NCBI GenBank assembly: GCA_003971905.1
Contig: RSEE01000020.1
Location: forward strand, 62,001-126,000
Direction: 5' to 3'
DNA from: Moniliella sp. 'wahieum'
Lineage: Eukaryota
Length of the DNA stretch: 64,000 bases
Shown: one piece after another, positions 2,152-53,382 of the stretch
Numbering within the stretch: position 1 is the stretch's first letter
Layout of the letters: the number at the start of each line of letters is the position of its first letter
The notes under the pieces: model-generated
The model's database searches: none
Told to the model about the DNA's origin: nothing
Seen by the model: only the letters and a program-made list of their open reading frames with translations
Position numbers and translations under genes: made by a program

Positions 2152-3933
2152 TCACAACAAGAGCAAAGCGCAAAAATCTGTTGAATGAGCTGGACGATCA
2201 ATGTCGCCGGTTCTTGAGCAGGTGGCGTTCCCCATGTTCAGCTCAAAGTCACGTTTGGGAGGGGGCAATCCGCGCGCGCGAGGAACGCCTTGGGGCATCG
2301 TCCCGTGAGGCTGCGCTCCATTGGGTTGGCTGGGATGCTGACTCGATCTTCCGGTCCCCGTGATGCCCTGGGACAAAGCGGTGGGCTGGTGTTTATCTTC
2401 CTCTTCGATCGGCTCGGCGTGGAGGGAGCGAGTAAAGGCTTCTTCGTCAATCCGGTGCACGGCATAGGAGACATCAAACGCGTCCTTCAGTTGTTGGAGA
2501 CCGGGAGTGGTGAGACCCAATCCGGCACGAGCGGCACGGGAAACGGTAGGGTCCGTGGAGCGCAGCACCGATAAGAGGGGCGAGGCGAGTGGCATGCCTC
2601 GGGCCATCTCCAGTCCGTTCGGGGTGAGAAAAGGGACGGACTGAGGGGCACGGCACCAAGGATGTTGCAAGAATGGTCGATCGTGTATCGTCCCCTGGGG
2701 TTGACGGTCAGCAGGTGGCTGATCAAGTCTTTGGCTGAATCCGATACATCGTCCCACCAAGGCGAGAGGAAAGTGAATTGCCCCCGCGCCACTTTTTCGT
2801 CAGGACGGCAATGCTCTCGTCGTAAAAGGGGGGAAACCACAAAGGAACGTATAGAGAACACAACCCAGTGCCCAGATCCACCGACTTGGTGTAGGAGGAC
2901 TTGCGCACAATCTCTGGTGCTGTATACCCAATCGTTCCACGGTGAGGTGGCATACCCACCTCATGTACCACCTTGCTCAGCCCAAAATCCGCAATCTTTA
3001 CCCGTCCAATCCCGCATCCACCGACACCGGGAATGAATCACCCTCATCGGCTTTGCCATGGTCGTACAGCCGCGTTTCCGGACCTTGACGGGATCAAAGG
3101 ATGGGCTCAAACAGAATGTTTCCGGCTTGATATCGCGGTGCACAACGCCAGCCTCTTGGTGCAGGTAGCGGATAGCCTCGGCGACCTGGAGGATAATATG
3201 CCTGGCAACGTCTTCGGAAAAGTAGGTATACTTGGCAATCTGGTGGAACAGCTCTCCGCCTTGACAAGTTCCATCACAAGAAAATAGTGGTTCGCCGACT
3301 CGCCAAACTCGAGCAGACGAACAATGTTGCCATGCGACAGTCTCCTCATGACCTGAACTTCTTGGAGCACGCTGGCATGCTCCGTGGCCCGCTGTCGCCT
3401 CCGGAACCGCGGTTGGAGATGAGGAAGAGAAATTCTGGGCCTTGTGCACCACCTTGATGGCGCACTCTCCTCCCGACTGACGGTGGCGAGCGCGAAAGAC
3501 GTTGCTAAACGCCCCTTCTCCCATCTTTTCCAGCAGAACAAAACGCTCGGTCACCGGGGTAGACGGGCAGTGTGTCGCCGGTCACCGTCTTTTCCCTCCG
3601 GACCAAATCTTCGGCCGCATTGCGGTACACCTGTTGCGTATCATTCTCTTGCCGCACCGAAGAGGCCGGCGCAGCTGGCGGAGAGGCGGGAAGGAAGTGG
3701 CAGGTGTCTTGGGCCCATTGCCTTGTGGACCTTCAGCAGTCTTGCACCAACGTTATCCACAGAGATTGCTCCTCCACAACAGGCGTGGGAGGACCATCGC
3801 GTTCGACCTGGTGCTCGCCCCACTTGGCAGCAACGGCGGGTGCGGCGCGGCCATGGCGGATGAGGTGTTGGAGGCTATCGAGCAACGGCGTTGCCGGCTC
3901 TTCGGGTGGGGCGATGGCGCTTACAATGCTCAT
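2152..3933 (-). CDS. CAMK-group Ser/Thr kinase, Srk1/Rck2-like (frameshifted in this assembly)
   Basis: Fragments across frames: LLEKMGEGAFSNV, CAIKVV, FLVMEL, GGELFHQI..YTYFSED, VHRDIKPE, GTIGYTAPE, FLSPWWDDVSDSAKDLISHLL, TPGL..LKDAFDVSYAVHR. Confidence 0.9.
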
Positions 3934-4433
3934 CGAGGTGGGAGGAGGACGAAAGGGGTGGCTGAGGAGAAGGAGGCAAGGAGGCAAGGCTCAGCTGGGT
4001 GGAAATGTAGCAGCGCCATAGGTGGTCCAAGCCACAACGCACTGGAAAGAAAGCCGGCGGGCGTTGGCAAAATGGCGGGGGGGGGCTTATGGAGGCGACT
4101 GTGGTGCCAGCGCGACGACGCGCGCGACCGCTGAGGCCAGCCCACACTCCCGGCGGTAACCGGTAACGAGGGGGGGGAGGGAACCAGGCAACCAGTAAGG
4201 CGGGCTGGTTAGACGAGGGCCCCCCTTTACACTGCTCAATGCAATATGCAACTCCCCCCCACGATCGGGAAAGCCTCGACTTGCGCCCGAGCCCTGAGCT
4301 GAGAGCCTCAGCGCTACCGCGCCCAGCACACTGGCCCCGAGCTGCCCTACTGGCTTGCCTGTTGCACCGATCCCATGGTACACAGCACTCGCTTAAGCGC
4401 CGCCTTCGGGGTGTGTTCAGCATGCATCAGCCA

Positions 4434-4524
4434 TCTCTATATCATAAGATCGGCTGGGAAATCCTGCACACTTTTGCGTCATAGGGCCGACCGGTGCCAC
4501 GTTCCCAGCCACCCAGCCAGAGAA
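4434..4524 (+). mobile_element. Duplicated 5'-terminal fragment of the Helitron-like element; contains the empty retrotransposon target TCTCTATATC|ATAAGATCGG
   Basis: Starts A|TCTCTATATC. 4444-4526 is nearly identical to 7841-7929. Internal inverted repeat GGCTGGGAA...TTCCCAGCC. Confidence 0.6.
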
Positions 4525-4534
4525 TCTCTATATC

Positions 4535-7500
4535 GTGTGCATTCCATTGACAGAGCTTAAGGCTGGGACAGGGGGAACGCTACGTCTAAACCGAACCGTT
4601 CATCTTGCGGGGGTTACTTGGAAGCGCCACAAGATTAAGGGACCAGGGGATCGCCAGGATATCAGGACCCTCCGGCTCACGCCATCCGGTCCCGTACCCT
4701 AGGAAGCGCGTGTGGACACGGAGGAACGTGGTTGACATACGAGCGAGGAACCATTTCCACTGAGACTTAGTAGCCAACTCCTTCCAATGCGCAAACAACT
4801 TGCCCGCCCTTGGTGCCGTAGTATCCTCCGCGTCAAAACCAGGGGGAAAACGGTTCTTGAGTGCGTCCCTGGTACTTGGCGTTCTTGTCGCATTCTGCGT
4901 TCAAGCAGCCGAAGCAGTTCCTTCTCCCGGCGTTCCAAAGGCGACGCAGTGCTCTCATGCACCACCCGCCGGTACGGCTCTGCGCCTCCTGCGATCCCGT
5001 GTCGCGCAGCGTGTGGTCTACCTCCATTCCGGTTCCTCCCTGCTCCGGGCCCCATCACGCGGTAATCGGTGCGCTGTGCCTTCCGTCCGCGCCTCGTCCC
5101 ATCCTCTTCCTCCACCATAGGTTCGTTGTGGACGTGGTGTCGGGGATGGAGCGGAGGAGCTGGAGAATGGGCTCCGCACTGCCTCATGCAACGCACCAAA
5201 CTTGGCCTGGGTGCGGGTGCAGGACATATGTTCCAGCGAGGACATGATGCCGCACTTGCAACATGCTGCGCGTGGTGCGGCACAGCGTGCGGAGCTGGAG
5301 ACCAACCTGGACCTGCTGGTCAGAGAGCGTGAGGTTACGGGACGGATGGAATGGCGGAGAGCCAGTTGTGGCTCAGCGGGTGCTGTGCTCAACCACATGG
5401 CGACCATCGGCAGCGTCCAGCTTCGAGCAGCTCCTGTCGACTTTGCTCCCACATCTCGCGGCAGCGCTGGCGTTGTTCGTAAATGCGTTGGCCCTTGCCG
5501 TTTGCGGTCCCGAACGGTCAACATAAGTGGTAATAGATAGTCGTTGACCTCGTTGGCCGCGGCACGGCGTGGGGCGCGATATACGAGTAAAGCGGGCTGC
5601 CACATCCTCCCAGCCGAAGAGGCAGGCTCATGAGCATGTCGAAGTGGTCGTCCTTGGCACCTTGGGGATCCTCGTCGCCCGGATCCGTCTGAACTCCGTA
5701 CAGATGAAGGCATCAATCTCGGCCAGCACGTCGTCTAGCTCTCCTTCCATCTGCATGGTGCGGAGCAGGTGGCGCAGCTTGGTCTAGTGCTGAGCCGCCA
5801 TAGTAAGAGGCGTCCCTGGCGGGTGATGCCATCAAACTTAGGCATGTTCTCCCTCAGACTGGCCAGTTGGGCCCGGAGCCACTCGACGACAGTCTACCCC
5901 TCCCACACAAGTGCCCAGAACCTGCAGACCATCCTCCCGAATCTGGTCCCGGTCCCGCTCGACACACTTACGCAGGTTGAGCTTGAGGCCTGACGCGTCG
6001 TCTTCCAAAAGCTCCGCGCTAGGCCGGTAATGCCTGGCCCTGGACCGAAAATCGTAATGTCGTCCAGGTATGCCATCACCAGGTGCCCCGGCGGCAGGTC
6101 CTGTTCCAGTTTCTCCAGCGTGGGCCGCACTGCGATGGAGAAGAAAAAGGGGGCGAGGGGGTCGCCCTGCCGTACCCTCTGCCGACAGGACGTTGGTCTC
6201 ATTTCCGCCGACGCGACCCAGAGCTGGGGGGGGAACCATAGATCCATCGGCCCAACGTGAGGAGATGGGGGGCGTAGGCATGGAGCGCCTTGGCGAGTGT
6301 GCGACGGCGCACAGTGTTGAAGGCGTTGGTAAAGTCGAGCATGGCGACGTGGGCTGAAGTCGCCCAGTTCCGCATCGTTCTCCCCGCCTGGCGCTGTCAT
6401 GCGCTCGACCATCCGTACGATAGGCTCCACCCGTTTTGCGATGCTACTCCCAACTGGGGGGAGAAGCCAGCTGTTGGGGGCGATCGCTCGAGCGATGGCC
6501 TTGGCGCACAGGCGGTAGATCAGCTCCCCGCAGGCGATGGGGCGGATGCCTCCCGATGCCTTCTCCAGGGGGTAAGGCGGGAGGCCAACAGGAGCTCGCG
6601 TCCTGGGCAGTGCCGTGGTAAATGCTCTTGTGAGGGCGGTGAGAAAGGCGACGAAGCGCTTGCATTCAAGGGCCGTTCTTAGGAGGGGCTGGGTCCACCC
6701 GGATAGACCTGCCCCAACGTCGATTCTGAACGTGGCAATCAAGGCAACAAAGTCGATTTCGTCCAAGTCCACCACGATACGGCCACTGTCCGTCGTGTCG
6801 GTGAGGGTGGTGCCCGGCGGTACCACGCGGCCTGTGTGGGGGACGAGTGCGGGTGGTGGTGTTGCCAAAGGCTGTGCCCGAGCCGAGGCTGAAGGGGTTC
6901 GCCTCTCCAACGGGGGGTGGAGCTTTCCAGGCTTTGCCTGGGTCTCGGGGGTGAGAGGGGCAATGGTGGATTGGCCGACGAGGGTACTTGCTGCGCGGCT
7001 GAGGCAGCCCTCCAGAATGAGGCGGTCGGCCTTGGTGACTGGGTCGAGTGCCTCGCGCGTTGAGAAGTCGGGGGGCGGAGGAGTTGCCAGGCGCTGTTGG
7101 GGTACGTCCCGATGAGGTTATTGTCCTTGTTGTGGTGGCGGAGTACTTCCTTAGGCACCGCTAGAATATCCATCAGGTGTGCTGACGAGGGCTCCTGCAA
7201 GTAAGCGTCCGCCAAACGGCCGAGCATCTGAAGGAAAGGGCGCTTCAGGTGTGGCGGTATCTTGCGTGTGCTGGGCGCTCGGCCAGGGCGGTCTCAAACG
7301 GGGAAGGAGGTCGGCCCCCGTGTCGGTCGAGGGTTGCGCGGTCGTCTGGTGGCGGTGGTGGTGGGGCGGCGGCGGCGGGGGGGGGGCGTGGCGCGGGGGC
7401 GCGGGGGGGTTGAGGGTCGGGGTGGCGGGGCGGGGGGGGCTGTCTGCGCGGGGGCGCGGCGCGGGCGTGGGGTAGTGGGGCGTGGGGTCTCGGCGCCGTA

Positions 7501-7840
7501 GCCATGGTTGGCTGTTCGGAGCCCAGCCGGGGGCTGCGGCGCCGGGGGGTGGCGAGTTGGGGGTTGGGGAGGAGGGGCGTGCCTTGACCCGGTACTTCGG
7601 GCACCGGGTTCCTGGCTTCGGAGTTGCGGGGGCAGCGGGCCCTGTTGTGGCAGGGTTCGTGCAAAGGGAGCAATGATACTCGCGCTTGGGGGGTGGGTCG
7701 GTGGCGGGGGGGGCGGGGGTGGTGGGTACGGGGACGGGGGTGGTGGGGATGGGGGTGGGGGTGGCGGCGGGCGGGGCGGGCGTGTCACGTGCCAGGACCC
7801 AGGTGGCAGCAAGCCGGCGCGGTCACGTGGTCAGGCATCC
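4535..7840 (-). mobile_element. Non-LTR retrotransposon with restriction-like endonuclease (CRE/Cnl1/MoTeR-like)
   Basis: A single frameshifted ORF with RT and C-terminal endonuclease motifs. Boundaries are defined by comparison with the empty site at 4434-4453. No LTRs, no poly(A), no clear TSD. Confidence 0.85.
4586..7838 (-). CDS. Retrotransposon polyprotein: Pro-rich N-terminus, CCHC zinc knuckle, reverse transcriptase, RLE-type endonuclease
   Basis: CSLC....HNRARC (about 7673-7631, across an indel); PLEKASGGIRPIACGELIYRLCAK; RQGDPLAPFFFS; YLDD (6070-6059); CCKCG...EHMSC...RH..VHN; RTDYRV; KNAKY...F.PLV. Confidence 0.85.
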
Positions 7841-7860
7841 ATAAGATCGGCTGGGAAATC

Positions 7861-7999
7861 TGCACACTTTTGCGTCATAGGCACGTGCCGACCGGTGCCA
7901 CGTTCCCAGCCACCCGCAGCCAGAGAATCCTGCACACTTTTGCGTCATAGGCACGTGCCGACCGGTGCCACGTTCCCAGCCACCCGCAGCCAGAGAATC
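7861..7999. repeat. Tandem duplication of a 70-bp unit
   Basis: TGCACACTTTTGCGTCATAGGCACGTGCCGACCGGTGCCACGTTCCCAGCCACCCGCAGCCAGAGAATC at 7861 and 7931. Confidence 0.95.
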
Positions 8000-8063
8000 G
8001 GTGATATTATTTGCCCTCTCCAGCGTGGAAGGGTTCCAGCGTGGAACGGTAGCGACGGTGGAA

Positions 8064-8167
8064 CGGTGGCTAAGGTGGCGAAGGGGACCGGTGGCTAAGG
8101 TGGCGATGGGGCCGGGGGAACGGTGGCTAAGGTGGCGAGGGGGGGGGAACGGTGGCTAAGGTGGCGA
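8064..8167. repeat. Four copies of CGGTGGCTAAGGTGGCGA separated by G-rich spacers of variable length
   Basis: Copies start at 8064, 8089, 8121 and 8150. Confidence 0.95.
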
Positions 8168-8431
8168 CGCAGCACCAAGCTGGGGCGAAGCCCCAGCCGA
8201 CCGGGCCGTAGGCCCGGTGGTCCTCCTCGTCTACTAATAGCCTGTCATTTAAACCAGCCCCATCCCAGACACCTGCGCTTGTCGCCCATGATGCGTGTTG
8301 GCATCACCACCACTGCTTCCAGAAGTTGGCATGGATTATGATGTGATCGATGGGATCTGAGGTCTTGATGCTTGATCGCCCTAAGCAATTAATCTATTGA
8401 ATGACTCTTTCCATGTTTGGATCACATCCAA

Positions 8432-8515
8432 GCCTCGCTATTTCAATCGGTAGAATTTGAGACTCTTACGTTGGAGATTCATCTCACGGTTGTGGGTTCG
8501 AGTCCCACGTGGGCG
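8432..8515 (+). tRNA. tRNA-Lys(CTT) with a 12-nt intron (8469-8480)
   Basis: Anticodon arm TGAGA-CTCTTA..A-TCTCA, T arm GTGGG-TTCGAGT-CCCAC, oligo-T terminator downstream. The acceptor stem lacks one G (likely homopolymer error) and there is one D-stem mismatch. Confidence 0.8.
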
Positions 8516-10499
8516 TAACTTTTTGTCTCATCCACAAGTCATTGTTCCTGTTGATTTGTGAAGGGGTAGATGGCCAAACCACACTATATAGTGTACGTGC
8601 ACGCGTTGCGCTACGGGCGAAAATGTTGTCGTCGCCACAACCTCTTCCCTTTCTATTCTCTCTTCCACTCTCCTTTTGATACTTGTTGCGAATGAATATC
8701 TGCTGGTTGGCGCGCCTCTCCCAGGACCAAGTGGCTTACGGCCGTGCCCTGTCGCGTCGCTCCAATCTCAGGTTCCATCTTGATCTCGATAGTGTGATCT
8801 CAGATCTCAGATCTCTTCACTTATTCTCACTCAAACTTTTATGATACTTTCCATTTTCCCTGTGGATTCAGCCATATTCAACCGTGTTTTATGGTTAGAT
8901 CTTAGATCTTGGAGCTTTTCTCAGCTGTTCCACACTTCCAGACTCATATATAATGGTACTCATCATACAGTTGGCCCACAGTCTCTCAAGAAATGTTGGG
9001 CGGGACCGAATAGATCGCCGGTCGCATAACGTTATTATTGCGTTGGTAATTGAACCATGTATACTTTGGCGGCACGACGGTAGTCCCTTATGCACAGGCA
9101 CTCTTCTCACAGCCCTCCGTCTGGATGAGGCCTCTCAGGGTCTCGTCTCAAAAGTTCTCAGACCTTCAGGTATACATGTCATGACCTCATGACCTCCATG
9201 CCCGATTTGATTCTTAATGAGACCTGGAGTCCTGATGGTCCTCGAGGGTGATGCAATCGCACTGGTGGTGCTGGTGCTGGTGGTGGTCTAAAGCAACCAG
9301 CAAGACCTACAGAGGAACATCAAGCAGCGAGTCGCCACCAGGGGCTAAGCTGCGGAACAGGGAAAAACAGGAGAGAGAAAACAACGGAACTCTCAGGCCT
9401 GAGGAGGAACTGAAGGGACATTGGCCAAAGCACGAGCCACCCGATGGCTCAACATTCTCCATCAACGCTGACAGCTTCGGCCACGAAGGGGGTTCAAGTC
9501 TGCCAATGGAGCTTGAAAGCCAAGTGAAAAAACTTTGAAGCGGCACCCGCAGGGCACAGCGACTTGCACAGCGAGAGAAGGCGAGAGAGACGAATCGATT
9601 CTAATAGCAAACCACTCTGACTAAAGAGCTTAATGCGCTTGTACTTGGCCTGCATAGCCGCTTACCCTCTCGGTTTCATCTCAACGTCCAACGAGAATGA
9701 ATATGCTCCCCTTCCCTGGACGCGCCTCCCTAAGCCTATACATCTGACGGTTGCATCCTCTGAACTATATACTCTGGGGTCTGTTCTGTCACAGAAGAAT
9801 AGATATGTGGCCATGCTCTGTACGAAGGGGTGTGGGTGCCGATGGTATTCATCCAGGCTGCATGGAATGGTGTTTTATATACCAGAGGAAAAGGAGAAGC
9901 AATCGCACGGTAAACCATCCGTGATGAGAGGGAAGAGGCACACAAAGGGATCAAGGAAGATCTAGAACAGGGTCGTACGCACAGCCAATGGGAATGTGTG
10001 TGTGGCCCGTCACGCTCACATAGCTAATCGAAAATGCTGGTAACAAGGTTCCGGATAGATATGTGAGGACTACGTAAAATTCAAGGGGGCAAGGCCCAAA
10101 AAATTGTGCGCAAGAAATTTCGATTAGCTATGCAATGCCCACCATAGAGGAAAGGATACTGAACAGTATACGGGAGCCAAGACGGACCTAGTGTCTGCTT
10201 CTGTTGGCTTGTGAAGACCAGATGACGATGGATGGGTGCTGCTGCCAGACGGAATACTATCTTCCTCTGCTACTAGAGAGATTCCTGATCTTTATAGCCG
10301 CGAGATGTTTGAATAAATTGTGTGGGCCTATACGATTCATCTGCCTTCTCCTCCTTTATACCGTCGCTACGTGGACCATCAGAATCGTATATAGGGAGGA
10401 GGAGGGGGAAGTGTGCCACTCGCATCACACATCCACCTCCGCCTGCTTAGCAGGCAGACATAAAAGGCCAAAAATGCAGGTGATGAGTGCGATCGATCA

Positions 10500-38512: not shown

Positions 38513-42111
<3,599 letters not shown>

Positions 42112-42369
42112 GTGCCATTCAATCACATTGCGCGCGGTGGCCTTCCTTCCCTCTCCAGTCTGTCCCCGGCCGGGAAGAGAAACAAAGGACTGCTAGAAAA
42201 ACAGGTGGTGCCGACTGGTATGCACGTAGACCGATCCATGTCCCTATCCTATCTGGCGCCCGCCTGCGATGATTGATGCCTGGGATAACTCCTGTTGAAA
42301 GCCGGCCACGACCATTCGATGCATTGCAAGTGCCCACCGCCTCCTACCGAACCAACTTCGTCAAAAAGA

Positions 42370-42455
42370 ACCTCCGACGGGAATCGAACCCGGGTCTCGT
42401 CGAACGCCTGCCAAACAGTGACAGGAACGTGTCATAGCCACTAAACTATCGGAGA
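42370..42455 (-). tRNA. tRNA-Asp(GTC) with an intron of about 16 nt
   Basis: Minus strand TCTCCGA-TAGTTTAGTGG...CTGTCA-[intron]-...GGGTTCGATTCCC-GTCGGAG, followed by oligo-T. Some stems are one base short (probable indel errors). Confidence 0.75.
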
Positions 42456-43553
42456 CACATGGCCTGGGTTGTCATGTCAAAACTTGCCACCAAACCCTTA
42501 TTTTACCCACTCAGTGGCGATATTGTTTAACCCTTTGAGACAGAAGATTGTCCGAAAAATGCCAGGTTACTCACTAGTTACACCGTCGCCAGCCGGTGAA
42601 TGTCCATTTGTCATCCTGTACTAGCTGTACTGCTATTAATCATCGATGCTACCATCCGCATCTCCCGGATCCAGATCTCAAATCTCTCGGATCGTACAGA
42701 TCGCCGAGATTTTGCCGGTCACGCTCTCTCATGTGATGCAGCGTTGTGTCACTTTGGGTGCGCCCCAACTCCGATGCTCCGTGGAGCCAGCCCCTACCAG
42801 GAATCTGACTGTGTGTCCCAAGTGGGGCAAGATGGGAGGTTGTTGGGGATGCTCGATGCTCAGCTTCAGCGATCATCGAAACCAACCAATACAGCTCTGA
42901 ATCTGGCTTCAGAGCTTCGAGAGCGCCTGAGCGCCTGAGAACCCCAGGCTTTTCAGGGCATCAGGCTTCCGACTTGGTGACGGTAACATGGACCGTCCAG
43001 CTGCTCCAGCCATCTCATGCATCATACATCATGTGCATCATCTCATGGGGCCGTCCACCGTCCCCCACAGCAAGTAGATCGACGGCAAAACAAGGGTTGG
43101 ACGTTGGCCGGCAGTGGCTTGACTTGGTCCTTTCCCTGTCTTTCCACGTCCTTCCCCATCCCATCGGCCAAGTCATGCTTGGGATTCACTGGCATCATGC
43201 ATCATATGGTTGCCTCCCGTGAGAGTGGTCGGTGCTCCGCCGCCATCGTGTTCCTACCTGCCATCCCACACAGGCGCTTCGGTTCCCGCTCGGGGGCGCT
43301 GTGGACCCAAAACAAGCCGGCTGGCCGCACACTGGTACAATGCTGTCCAGATGCAGCAGAGGCCTGTGCCGCTGCTGCCCATTCCCCTGCTCCCCAGCAG
43401 CGGCACTGCAGCGGCACAAAACGCCCATCATGCTATCAAGCTTCAAGCTTCAAGTGATTAGGAACCCTTGTGGGCACCGACAAAAAACGCCCCTCCCTCG
43501 AGCCCATCCAGCCCAACCCCTCCCCCCCCACCTCTCGACACCCCCTCCCCCTC

Positions 43554-52854: not shown

Positions 52855-53382
52855 TCAGTCCGAAGTGGCGCGGGTGTAGACCAGCTGAGCGTGGTGGTGG
52901 ACCACGCGCTTGATCTGTCCCTCCTGTTCCAGGTGCTTAATTGCGCGCCGGGCGAGCGAGCCATTGATCTTCAACCGGTCAATCAGCGTCGATTGCGAGA
53001 TGAACTTGAACGTCGGCACCTCCTTGATGATGCGGTCGTACGTGGCCTTGTCCAGCACCACATTGTTTTGTGCCTTGTCCTTCACCTTGCCCTTGCTCCA
53101 CTTCTTCTTCTTGGCGCTCTTGGTGGCCGAAGCCAGGATGGCCGACTTCTTGGGGGGCACTGCCAAACAAGCGTTAGTTTCTCTTCTGTCCCACATGACC
53201 GCCCGCTCATCGTAGCCGAAACTAAGGACCCATTCGGACACCACCCCTGCTGTGCCCGGCGGCTTGGCCGCCGCGCGCGCGCACGCAGGCTCAATGCTTG
53301 CGACCCCCCGAAAGCAGCGCTCCCGCAGGGGAGAAGTTCCGCAGCAGAACGGGTGCCACAGTTGGAGTACTTCGTACTTACT
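52855..53382 (-). CDS. RPS25: 40S ribosomal protein eS25; start codon split by a 222-nt intron (53381-53160)
   Basis: PPKK...AKKKKWSKGKVKDKAQ...LKINGSLARRAIKHL...QLVYTRAT. CACAA|GTAAGT...CTAAC...CAG|TGCCC reconstitutes ATG. Confidence 0.95.
   Translation of the reverse strand, partial: SKYEVLQLWHPFCCGTSPLRERCFRGVASIEPACARAAAKPPGTAGVVSEWVLSFGYDERAVMWDRRETNACLAVPPKKSAILASATKSAKKKKWSKGKVKDKAQNNVVLDKATYDRIIKEVPTFKFISQSTLIDRLKINGSLARRAIKHLEQEGQIKRVVHHHAQLVYTRATSD

Follow-up and report, generated by a model that had tools for sequence, protein, structure and literature searches.

Nested insertion of a putative restriction-like-endonuclease retrotransposon ten nucleotides inside a probable Helitron-like element

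Can the end of one transposable element serve as the landing site of another? Site-specific retrotransposons that carry a restriction-like endonuclease (RLE) serve as models of safe-harbour finding by mobile elements, and tools for programmable gene insertion start from them, as in the case of R2. The question is raised by a locus in a window of 64,000 nt from Moniliella sp. 'wahieum' (the whole stretch of DNA that was analysed), in which a retroelement interrupts what an initial annotation took to be the 5′ terminus of a Helitron-like element, with the proposal that such termini are the target of the retroelement family. If this were true, a family that has exchanged telomere repeats for another transposon's end would add a new class of target, and one selfish element would be living on the recognition sequence of another. 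The results described below support this interpretation in part.

The nested insertion and its junctions

Direct reading of the sequence showed that the 20-mer consisting of TCTCTATATC followed by ATAAGATCGG is unbroken at 4434-4453, whereas the same 20-mer is split by 3.3 kb a short distance away, with TCTCTATATC at 4525-4534 and ATAAGATCGG continuing from 7841 (7841-7850). The juxtaposition of a split and an uninterrupted site, first noted in the initial annotation, was thereby confirmed; the uninterrupted copy is 91 nt to the left of the split one. The target site, whether counted as filled or empty, is written TCTCTATATCATAAGATCGG. The features of the locus are as follows.

4434..4443, plus strand: outer 10-nt Helitron-like 5′ terminus TCTCTATATC, the "empty" site, read directly; an A of unique DNA precedes it, and the window holds the left flank once.
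4444..4524, plus strand: continuation of the empty site, a 20-nt stretch beginning with ATAAGATCGG and one repeat unit, a copy of 7841-7929.
4525..4534, plus strand: second 10-nt terminus, the left half of the filled site, next to the retroelement 3′ end; the last letters of the preceding unit overlap its first TC, or ATC.
4535..7840, minus strand: putative near full-length RLE-type non-LTR retrotransposon, 5′ end at 7840 and 3′ end at 4535, from Pfam RVT_1, tblastn frames and motifs.
7841..7999, plus strand: right half of the filled site, a 19-20-nt stretch beginning with ATAAGATCGG and then two 70-nt units, from direct reading and repeat analysis.
8000..8237, plus strand: Helitron-like 3′ module, from tandem repeats, the predicted fold and a signal of hairpin, CTRR and T.
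8060-8167, plus strand: 29-nt tandem repeats in the 3′ module, from a tandem-repeat search.
8179-8197 and 8200-8218, plus strand: G+C-rich hairpins in the 3′ module, from the predicted fold.
8234-8237, plus strand: terminal CTAA, then T, read directly.
8432..8515, plus strand: tRNA gene of 84 nt, probably with an intron, given for context only (Rfam RF00005, 34.3 bits).

The tRNA gene begins 195 nt beyond the CTAA end, and ARAGORN gave no tRNA at 8432-8515. The retroelement copy is thus interstitial, with a kinase gene on one side and the tRNA gene on the other.

The sequences that meet the insert match the unbroken site exactly on both sides. It was found by repeat analysis that 4443-4463 and 7840-7860 are identical at 21 of 21 nt, a longer match than the initial annotation had stated, and that one C is common to both junctions, so that either 1 nt is duplicated or the position of the boundary is uncertain by 1 nt. 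To the left, the A before the TC is also shared, which extends the match to the 11-nt ATCTCTATATC. Because exact matches of 10-11 nt and of 21 nt both abut the same insert, chance cannot explain them. The junctions are as clean as first described: no more than 1 nt (the C) is duplicated, with no target-site duplication longer than 1 nt at the junctions, and the poly(A) looked for there is absent. Comparison of the 64-kb window with itself by blastn revealed nothing else similar to 4434-8237. The nested insertion is real.

A likeness between TCAGGCATC (7832-7840) and the host flank plus TC, TCAGCCATC (4427-4435), is suggestive in its position, but it was treated as chance because the local alignment score of 13 falls within that of shuffled sequences (14.3 ± 1.8) and 34 such 9-mers are present in the window.

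The retroelement and its relatives

Judging from its domains, the insert is a near full-length non-LTR retrotransposon with a reverse transcriptase (RT) and an RLE. On its minus strand, Pfam RVT_1 was detected above the curated cut-off (E 2.7e-08), with RT motifs at 6524-6553, 6316-6342 and 6149-6172 and YLDD at 6059-6070. The N-terminal 250 aa, in an uncertain frame, are proline-rich, and a CxxC is located at 7661-7675, where homologues have CxxC...H. A CCHC motif is present at 5219-5263 and endonuclease remnants at 5013-5191, the latter with the motifs E (5113-5127), RTD (5056-5073) and D (5013-5027) in fitting spacing. The C-terminal series of the clade is CCHC followed by RHD/N ... E ... 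R/KPD ... D/E (PMC12857005, in the part available). In the insert the RHD/N motif reads LHE, the zinc knuckle has H-x2-C instead of H-x3-4-C, and the endonuclease pieces are distributed over three frames; indel errors in the assembly may explain part of these deviations. No other Pfam domain, the AP-type endonuclease included, was found in the 11 minus-strand ORFs of the retroelement. Together with the nearest named relatives, described below, these domains support the RT/RLE assignment made in the initial annotation.

Homologues of 1000-1100 aa aligned by tblastn from about 7260 to 5347 in changing minus frames, and at least eight apparent frame changes were counted in the retroelement. The assembly is demonstrably rich in indel errors: the essential gene PRP22 shifts frame without introns at the abutting positions 39294/39291, at 39782 and at 40140/40128, corresponding to an indel error about every 250-350 nt, and such errors are also present in the kinase gene (2961-3554). 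A PRP22 fragment used as a query matched fungi and plants equally, at 50-80% identity. Therefore, the frameshifts of the retroelement are not proof of decay, and both its decay and the exact detail of the junctions are to be read with caution. The same consideration matters for any reading of "broken" genes in this assembly.

The relatives of the retroelement, no more than 26-48% identical to it, included Cryptococcus proteins and metagenome elements. The nearest named proteins were from Cryptococcus neoformans (about 1000 aa, 33-35% identity), which we take to be Cnl1. The domain order of the homologues, in the consensus of an alignment designated A1, is zinc finger, RT, CCHC, endonuclease. 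When metagenome contigs were searched with this alignment, the best 80 of 258 relatives were kept, all 26-43% identical. These elements, too, are without poly(A) and directly adjoin their target, and 15 of the 80 kept loci end in C-strand telomere-like repeats, which fits a clade of sequence-specific elements; the characterised members of the clade are all site-specific or telomeric according to the available part of PMC12857005. Helitron-like parts or the 20-mer were present in none of the 80 kept loci, and the left 10-mer alone was present in one. Exact matches were likewise absent for a 22-mer of the retroelement 3′ end in metagenome contigs and, in genome contigs, for the target 20-mer and for a 22-mer from the hairpin; 18 pattern matches in viral contigs included no relatives. 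Self-matches mark tandem repeats close to the ends of some relatives (L024, L028 and L041), and VNTRs are mentioned for the clade in the part of PMC12857005 that was available.

A profile of the family, compared with solved structures, matched R2 proteins first (E 2e-19), with LINE-1 ORF2p far behind (3e-05). In a FastTree analysis of 117 rows, compiled without named CRE1/2, SLACS, CZAR, Cnl1, MoTeR, R2, NeSL, R4 or HERO references, the RT of the window fell within a supported set of 99 rows, together with 3 Cryptococcus proteins and 11 telomere-flanked loci, on a long branch (1.11) that is placed no more finely than within this set.

Among known systems, Cnl1 (Cryptococcus), MoTeR1 (Magnaporthe) and FoTeR (Fusarium) resemble the insert in its probable layout of one long ORF with an N-terminal zinc-finger-like CxxC, RT, CCHC and a PD-(D/E)XK-type endonuclease, in the replacement of R/KPD (motif from PMC12857005, in the part available) by RAD/RTD, and in the lack of poly(A). 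Unlike these elements, the insert has no telomere-like repeat at either end, nor is there one anywhere in the window; the copy is interstitial, and its RT is on a long, isolated branch. CRE1/CRE2, SLACS and CZAR, found in the spliced-leader genes of trypanosomatids, have the endonuclease motif series that can in part be placed in the insert, and they insert precisely at one position of a multicopy target (PMC12857005, same part). In contrast, the target described here is not an RNA gene: a search of 3800-9000 with Rfam at E up to 1 yielded only the downstream tRNA at 8432-8515, by which an RNA gene or ribozyme as the target was ruled out. R2, which resides in the 28S rDNA of animals, resembles the insert with its putative RLE, proposed target-primed reverse transcription and lack of poly(A), and was the best match among solved structures; R2 junctions show small duplications or deletions. 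It differs in that it is a remote relative, matched over the RT core, with another target and with a 5′ ribozyme that Rfam did not find here.

The host element

The host is most likely a Helitron-like non-autonomous element of about 0.5 kb, with the insert 10 nt from its 5′ end. All structural marks of a canonical Helitron are present. The 5′ TC follows an A at 4434-4435, a boundary that we place at the end of the duplicated segment and not by comparison with other copies, and the context of insertion, GCCA/TC ... CTAA/TAGCC, is between A and T without a target duplication. The 70-nt units at 7860-7929 and 7930-7999 are identical. The region of the 3′ hairpins has a predicted fold of -20.2 kcal/mol (z -3.56), with 0 of 200 shuffles as good, and the signal of hairpin, CTRR and T is rare, with 2 occurrences over the two strands of the window (128 kb).

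These properties agree with those of the canonical non-autonomous Helitron (HLE1), defined in the available part of PMC11417382 by a 5′ TC, 3′ hairpin(s) followed by CTAA (CTRR), an A/T insertion site that is not duplicated, and tandem repeats within the element. The element differs in having two hairpins instead of one, and in that its 3′ module is found head to tail in another sample (8222 back to 8000), in the manner of a satellite. The 64-kb window contains no second Helitron copy, and no Rep/helicase was found among its 92 stop-to-stop ORFs of at least 170 aa, 74 of which were covered in one scan and the rest, or overlapping forms, in other scans. Thus, of the Helitron-like host proposed initially, the 5′ TC, the two 3′ hairpins followed by CTAA and the A/T site stand, whereas the identity of the element is proposed from structural signals, and TC/CTRR signals by themselves produce many false positives (HELIANO paper, PMC11417382, in the part available).

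Mechanism, target preference and the unbroken site

On balance, we favour the interpretation that an RLE retrotransposon, in minus orientation, inserted into a Helitron-like element by target-primed reverse transcription. The split 20-mer, the orientation, the remnants of RT and endonuclease and the clean junctions are read at the locus itself. We infer the nick, the priming and the joining from R2 and its relatives: the endonuclease of the element would nick the plus strand after TCTCTATATC, the freed 3′-OH would prime reverse transcription from the 3′ end of the element RNA, and the far end of the cDNA would then be connected to ATAAGATCGG, without poly(A) and with a single duplicated base (C) at the most.

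Any target preference is read from one copy in one error-prone assembly. It is possible, if doubtful, that Helitron ends are the regular target of this retroelement family, such that its endonuclease recognises TCTCTATATC/ATAAGATCGG at the conserved 5′ terminus shared by a Helitron family of many copies and most genomic copies of the retroelement are located there. The site-specific or telomeric habit of the characterised clade members (PMC12857005, in the part available) and the telomere-like ends of 15 of the 80 kept relatives point in this direction, as do a near full-length copy with junctions precise to 1 nt and a site within a repeated kind of element. However, there is a single copy, the exact-word scans and the 80 kept metagenome loci yielded no other copy with flanks, and the target is itself a putative Helitron. 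Recognition by the nuclease of a short motif that just happens to be present at the Helitron end seems to us somewhat unlikely; what probability remains goes to a one-off nested insertion. As it stands, the locus provides one such insertion, and its practical value is that of a precise pointer, namely a 20-mer and two junctions for counting in the full assembly.

A precedent exists in Tx1L of Xenopus, a non-LTR element that inserts into the DNA transposon Tx1D, has an AP-type endonuclease and belongs to another clade. If Helitron targeting were true, both would be retroelements living inside a multicopy DNA transposon, with the difference that the host here would belong to the rolling-circle elements, with its terminus as the site. 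A Cnl1/MoTeR-like lineage might have switched from telomere repeats to the Helitron 5′ terminus, cutting 10 nt inside it, and the resulting composite, with an intact spare 5′ end to the left of the interrupted one and intact 3′ hairpins, could then still be moved by the Helitron enzyme with the retroelement as cargo; we consider this scenario rather unlikely, and the carriage of the retroelement by Helitron transposition is speculation. Titles and the openings of abstracts in the literature disclosed no RLE element that targets Helitron ends, which is not proof that none is in print.

Between the unbroken copy at 4444-4524 and 7841-7929 there are no substitutions and three indels (5, 2 and 1 nt). 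A very recent duplication, a second 5′ end of a Helitron and an artefact of assembly are the candidates for what this copy represents. Our order of preference is a second 5′ terminus of a composite Helitron, then a local duplication at the resolution of the insertion, and then an artefact; the first is preferred because the second TC follows an A, as in Helitron insertions. An artefact could have arisen if, for example, reads from an allele or cell line lacking the insertion were merged with reads that have it in a poorly polished long-read consensus, in which case the true locus would be simply filled or empty and the insertion polymorphic and recent. That the copies differ by indels alone, the error type seen in PRP22 (about every 250-350 nt) and in the kinase gene, is consistent with an artefact, as is the location of the 5-nt gap in the palindrome GGCACGTGCC. 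However, the second copy begins exactly at A/TC, as a Helitron end would and a chance breakpoint need not, and consensus errors are more typically single-base than multi-base indels, so that we regard the artefact as an improbable, though serious, candidate.

It is quite unlikely that the repeats belong to the retroelement itself, as repeats of its untranslated end or as a long target-site duplication, with no Helitron involved. The 70-nt units do abut the 5′ end of the retroelement, and tandem repeats near the ends of L024, L028 and L041, as well as the VNTRs in the available part of PMC12857005, would be compatible with such an origin. A long target-site duplication was nevertheless rejected on geometry, the two flanks being out of register and the insert lying 10 nt into the duplicated segment, counted from the left; moreover, the segment ends in hairpins and CTAA/T, and a contig from another sample spans part of the last unit and the 3′ module. 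Capture of retroelement DNA by a Helitron, with no insertion event at the site, is very improbable: Helitrons do capture foreign sequences (PMC4289320 and PMC5148889, in the parts available), but such a capture would need to have taken in a complete element, first base to last, and the same 20-mer is contiguous 91 nt away.

A search of public sequencing runs found one food metagenome run with 0.16 of the words, and two runs of the same study. The X2 and X3 matches were limited to G-rich low-complexity stretches at 7365-7779. The X1 contigs have no usable flanks; their depths and the parts that they leave uncovered (the unique flanks, 4444-4518 and most of the 70-nt units) carry no weight. They cover pieces of the retroelement between 4912 and 6977, as well as 7991-8424, and join 8222 back to 8000; one of them spans 7996 with 50 letters or more on either side. 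Because the X1 contigs cover both the retroelement and the 3′ module, these are repeated or shared sequences and not local oddities.

Junctions of the insertion and the Helitron-like host element

The initial annotation had described a 20-mer that is unbroken at one place and split by a retroelement at another, and reading of the sequence bore this out: TCTCTATATC (4434-4443) is directly continuous with ATAAGATCGG (4444-4453), and a second TCTCTATATC at 4525-4534 is followed by 3306 nt, after which ATAAGATCGG occurs again from 7841. The exact matches at the junctions are slightly longer than had been given. It was found that 4443-4463 is identical to 7840-7860 (21/21 nt), and therefore a single C is common to both junctions; at the left junction, the A before TCTCTATATC is likewise common to both copies. 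Comparison of 4444-4524 with 7841-7929 gave no substitutions and three indels (5, 2, and 1 nt), and on the right side a second 70-nt unit (7930-7999) is identical to the one before it. Self-comparison of the 64-kb window yielded no other sequence like 4434-8237. The retroelement has no poly(A). Its final nine plus-strand bases, TCAGGCATC (7832-7840), are 8/9 alike to TCAGCCATC (4427-4435), which consists of host flank plus the TC that opens the Helitron-like end; the location is suggestive, and the score was no better than that of shuffles.

Minus the insert and the duplicate, 4434-8237 amounts to about 0.5 kb.

Features of the host element
4434-8237: in order, the 10-mer, 20 nt of further sequence, a pair of 70-nt units, a 3′ module carrying tandem 29-nt repeats, two hairpins, and CTAA
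8179-8197 and 8200-8218, plus strand: G+C-rich hairpins (-20.2 kcal/mol, z -3.56, 0/200 shuffles equally good)
8234-8237, plus strand: terminal CTAA, read from the sequence

The 5′ TC is preceded by A, and the 3′ end precedes T. These ends and the hairpins match the canonical Helitron marks in the excerpt of PMC11417382, which also warns of many false positives from such signals. A perfect 7-bp hairpin followed by CTRR and T occurs at only two places in the window, both strands counted; the other place (52881-52907, minus strand), in the region of a ribosomal protein S25 gene, is probably a chance match. No second copy of the host element was found within the window, and no Rep/helicase among the 92 listed window ORFs of at least 170 aa (74 in one domain scan and the others, or overlapping forms, in other scans). 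It is likely but unproven that this is a Helitron-like non-autonomous element.

Contigs of another sample, the food-metagenome run X1, cover 7991-8424. In one X1 contig, position 8222 leads through 8 intervening nucleotides to position 8000, giving a head-to-tail 3′ module; in X1 the number of 29-nt repeats varies, and a joint skips 8051-8142. It may be that the 3′ module occurs as a short satellite as well. An 84-nt tRNA gene (8432-8515, plus strand; Rfam 34.3 bits, missed by ARAGORN) begins 195 nt beyond the 3′ end of the element and probably contains an intron.

Retroelement domains and indels in the assembly

The database relatives of the retroelement are remote: at E <= 0.001 there were 44 proteins with 25-36% identity, 13 of them similar in length and 31 longer, the longer including three Cryptococcus neoformans proteins (854-1135 aa) and one Cladobotryum 'reverse transcriptase'. 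The alignment of the longer relatives has the domain order N-terminal CxxC...H fingers, RT, CxxC...H...C, and then RH..., E, R.D, and D, and this C-terminal series is, judged by its motifs, a restriction-like endonuclease (RLE). In the window, these relatives cover the interval between about 7260 and 5347, with minus frames changing along the way. Below 5347, the endonuclease motif series of the FoTeR paper (PMC12857005), as it appears in the excerpt of that source, was placeable with fitting spacing.

Features of the retroelement (motif placements are putative)
5894-7117, minus strand: stop-to-stop ORF with Pfam RVT_1 (E 2.7e-08)
5219-5263, minus strand: CCHC, motif placement
Endonuclease region, minus strand: LHE at the RHD/N position, motif placement; differs from the expected RHD/N
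5113-5127, minus strand: endonuclease E, motif placement
5056-5073, minus strand: endonuclease RTD, motif placement
5013-5027, minus strand: endonuclease D, motif placement

With the family profile against solved structures, R2 proteins were the top matches (E 2e-19) and LINE-1 ORF2p was far lower (3e-05). Because the homologues are 1000-1100 aa and the element is 3.3 kb, this copy is near full length.

The gene for PRP22, an essential splicing helicase (38531-42108, plus strand), changes frame at 39294/39291, 39782, and 40140/40128, positions that abut and leave no space for introns. A protein kinase gene (2961-3554, minus strand) likewise changes frame at abutting positions without intron room. 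In both genes, conserved segments 71-76% identical to homologues run in one frame and then in another. Therefore, indel errors appear to be frequent in the assembly, approximately one per 250-350 nt, and frameshifted genes in the window are not to be called pseudogenes. The frame changes of the retroelement (at least 8) are similar in density to those of PRP22, and so they are no proof of a dead copy. Just beyond the end of the helicase gene, ARAGORN reported a tRNA whose anticodon has four bases (gtca; 42368-42456, minus strand), which had no Rfam support at the gathering score.

Origin of the uninterrupted site

The uninterrupted 20-mer, or 'empty site', may be an additional Helitron 5′ end. 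Immediately before the second TC stands ...GAGAA, an A|T-type junction as expected from a Helitron inserted into the repeat unit of another Helitron, and such a composite could later have moved as a single piece. The site may instead be an assembly artefact, a reading that gains weight from the indel errors in the PRP22 and kinase genes and from the finding that the duplicate and its partner copy differ by indels only. It might also be a by-product of retroelement insertion, in which a second nick would fall about 80-90 nt off and second-strand synthesis would displace a few bases, the flap being ligated and not trimmed; an ATC microhomology at the junction agrees with this scheme. A long target-site duplication was rejected: the left flank ends in the 10-mer and the right flank opens with the next 10-mer, and therefore the insert lies within the duplicated 91 nt, not between two copies.

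Target specificity and relatives

The remaining and largest share of probability, beside two other readings, goes to a single chance nesting event or a locus distorted by an artefact. The proposal of the initial annotation, that Helitron ends would be a regular target of the family, is tentative and is based on the clade prior and on how precise this single insertion is; clade members are site-specific or telomeric in the excerpt of PMC12857005. A nuclease with a short recognition motif, merely present at the Helitron end, is in our view rather unlikely. Exact-word scans of public contig collections gave no matches for the retroelement 3′ end, the 20-mer, or the hairpin. A search of public sequencing runs turned up only a metagenome that shares some of the query words. 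The X1 contigs show that the retroelement and the 3′ module are present elsewhere too, and contig depths and uncovered parts carry no information.

Scanning of metagenome contigs with the family alignment gave 258 relatives, of which 80 were kept (26-43% identity); Helitron-like parts were absent from all 80 loci. At least three C-strand telomere-like repeats, in many cases flanking the element on both sides, were present in 15/80 (L004, L008, L009, L010, L034, L041, L050, L055, L057, L063, L070, L071, L073, L075, and L079). The C-rich strand was always the RT sense strand, with one additional G-strand run in L071. In L001/L002 and L050/L057, where the end is visible from two diverged copies, the element end adjoins CCCTAA-like repeats directly. 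These 15 loci would appear to be telomere-targeting elements of the Cnl1/MoTeR kind that are not yet described. There are no telomere-like repeats in the window.

A FastTree tree of 117 rows comprised 44 database proteins, 72 of the 80 loci (the other 8 had a best piece of < 220 aa or more than one stop), and the window, whose row was read through frame breaks with X. The window had a long branch (1.11), its position unresolved within a supported 99-row set that also contains the Cryptococcus proteins, Cladobotryum, and 11 telomere-flanked loci. 'CRE-type' is a reasonable but provisional label, the tree having no named CRE, SLACS, R2, or NeSL sequences among its rows.

In its mode of action, the retroelement most resembles R2 and the CRE/SLACS/Cnl1/MoTeR group; in sequence, it is nearest to Cnl1-like proteins. 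What sets it apart is an interstitial, non-telomeric site. For a retroelement with a DNA transposon as its target, Tx1L in Tx1D is the known precedent. Titles and abstract openings yielded no description of an RLE element directed at Helitron ends. On present evidence, the retroelement is a further member of a known RLE kind, nested in another transposon; if a genome-wide count confirmed the targeting of Helitron ends, this would be a new class of target for RLE elements.

Head-to-tail arrays of relatives were seen at L042-L045 (two contigs) and L008: in L042, a 5.6-kb stretch recurs every 7.4 kb, its copies being 100% identical, and L008 contains a 1.2-kb exact direct repeat.
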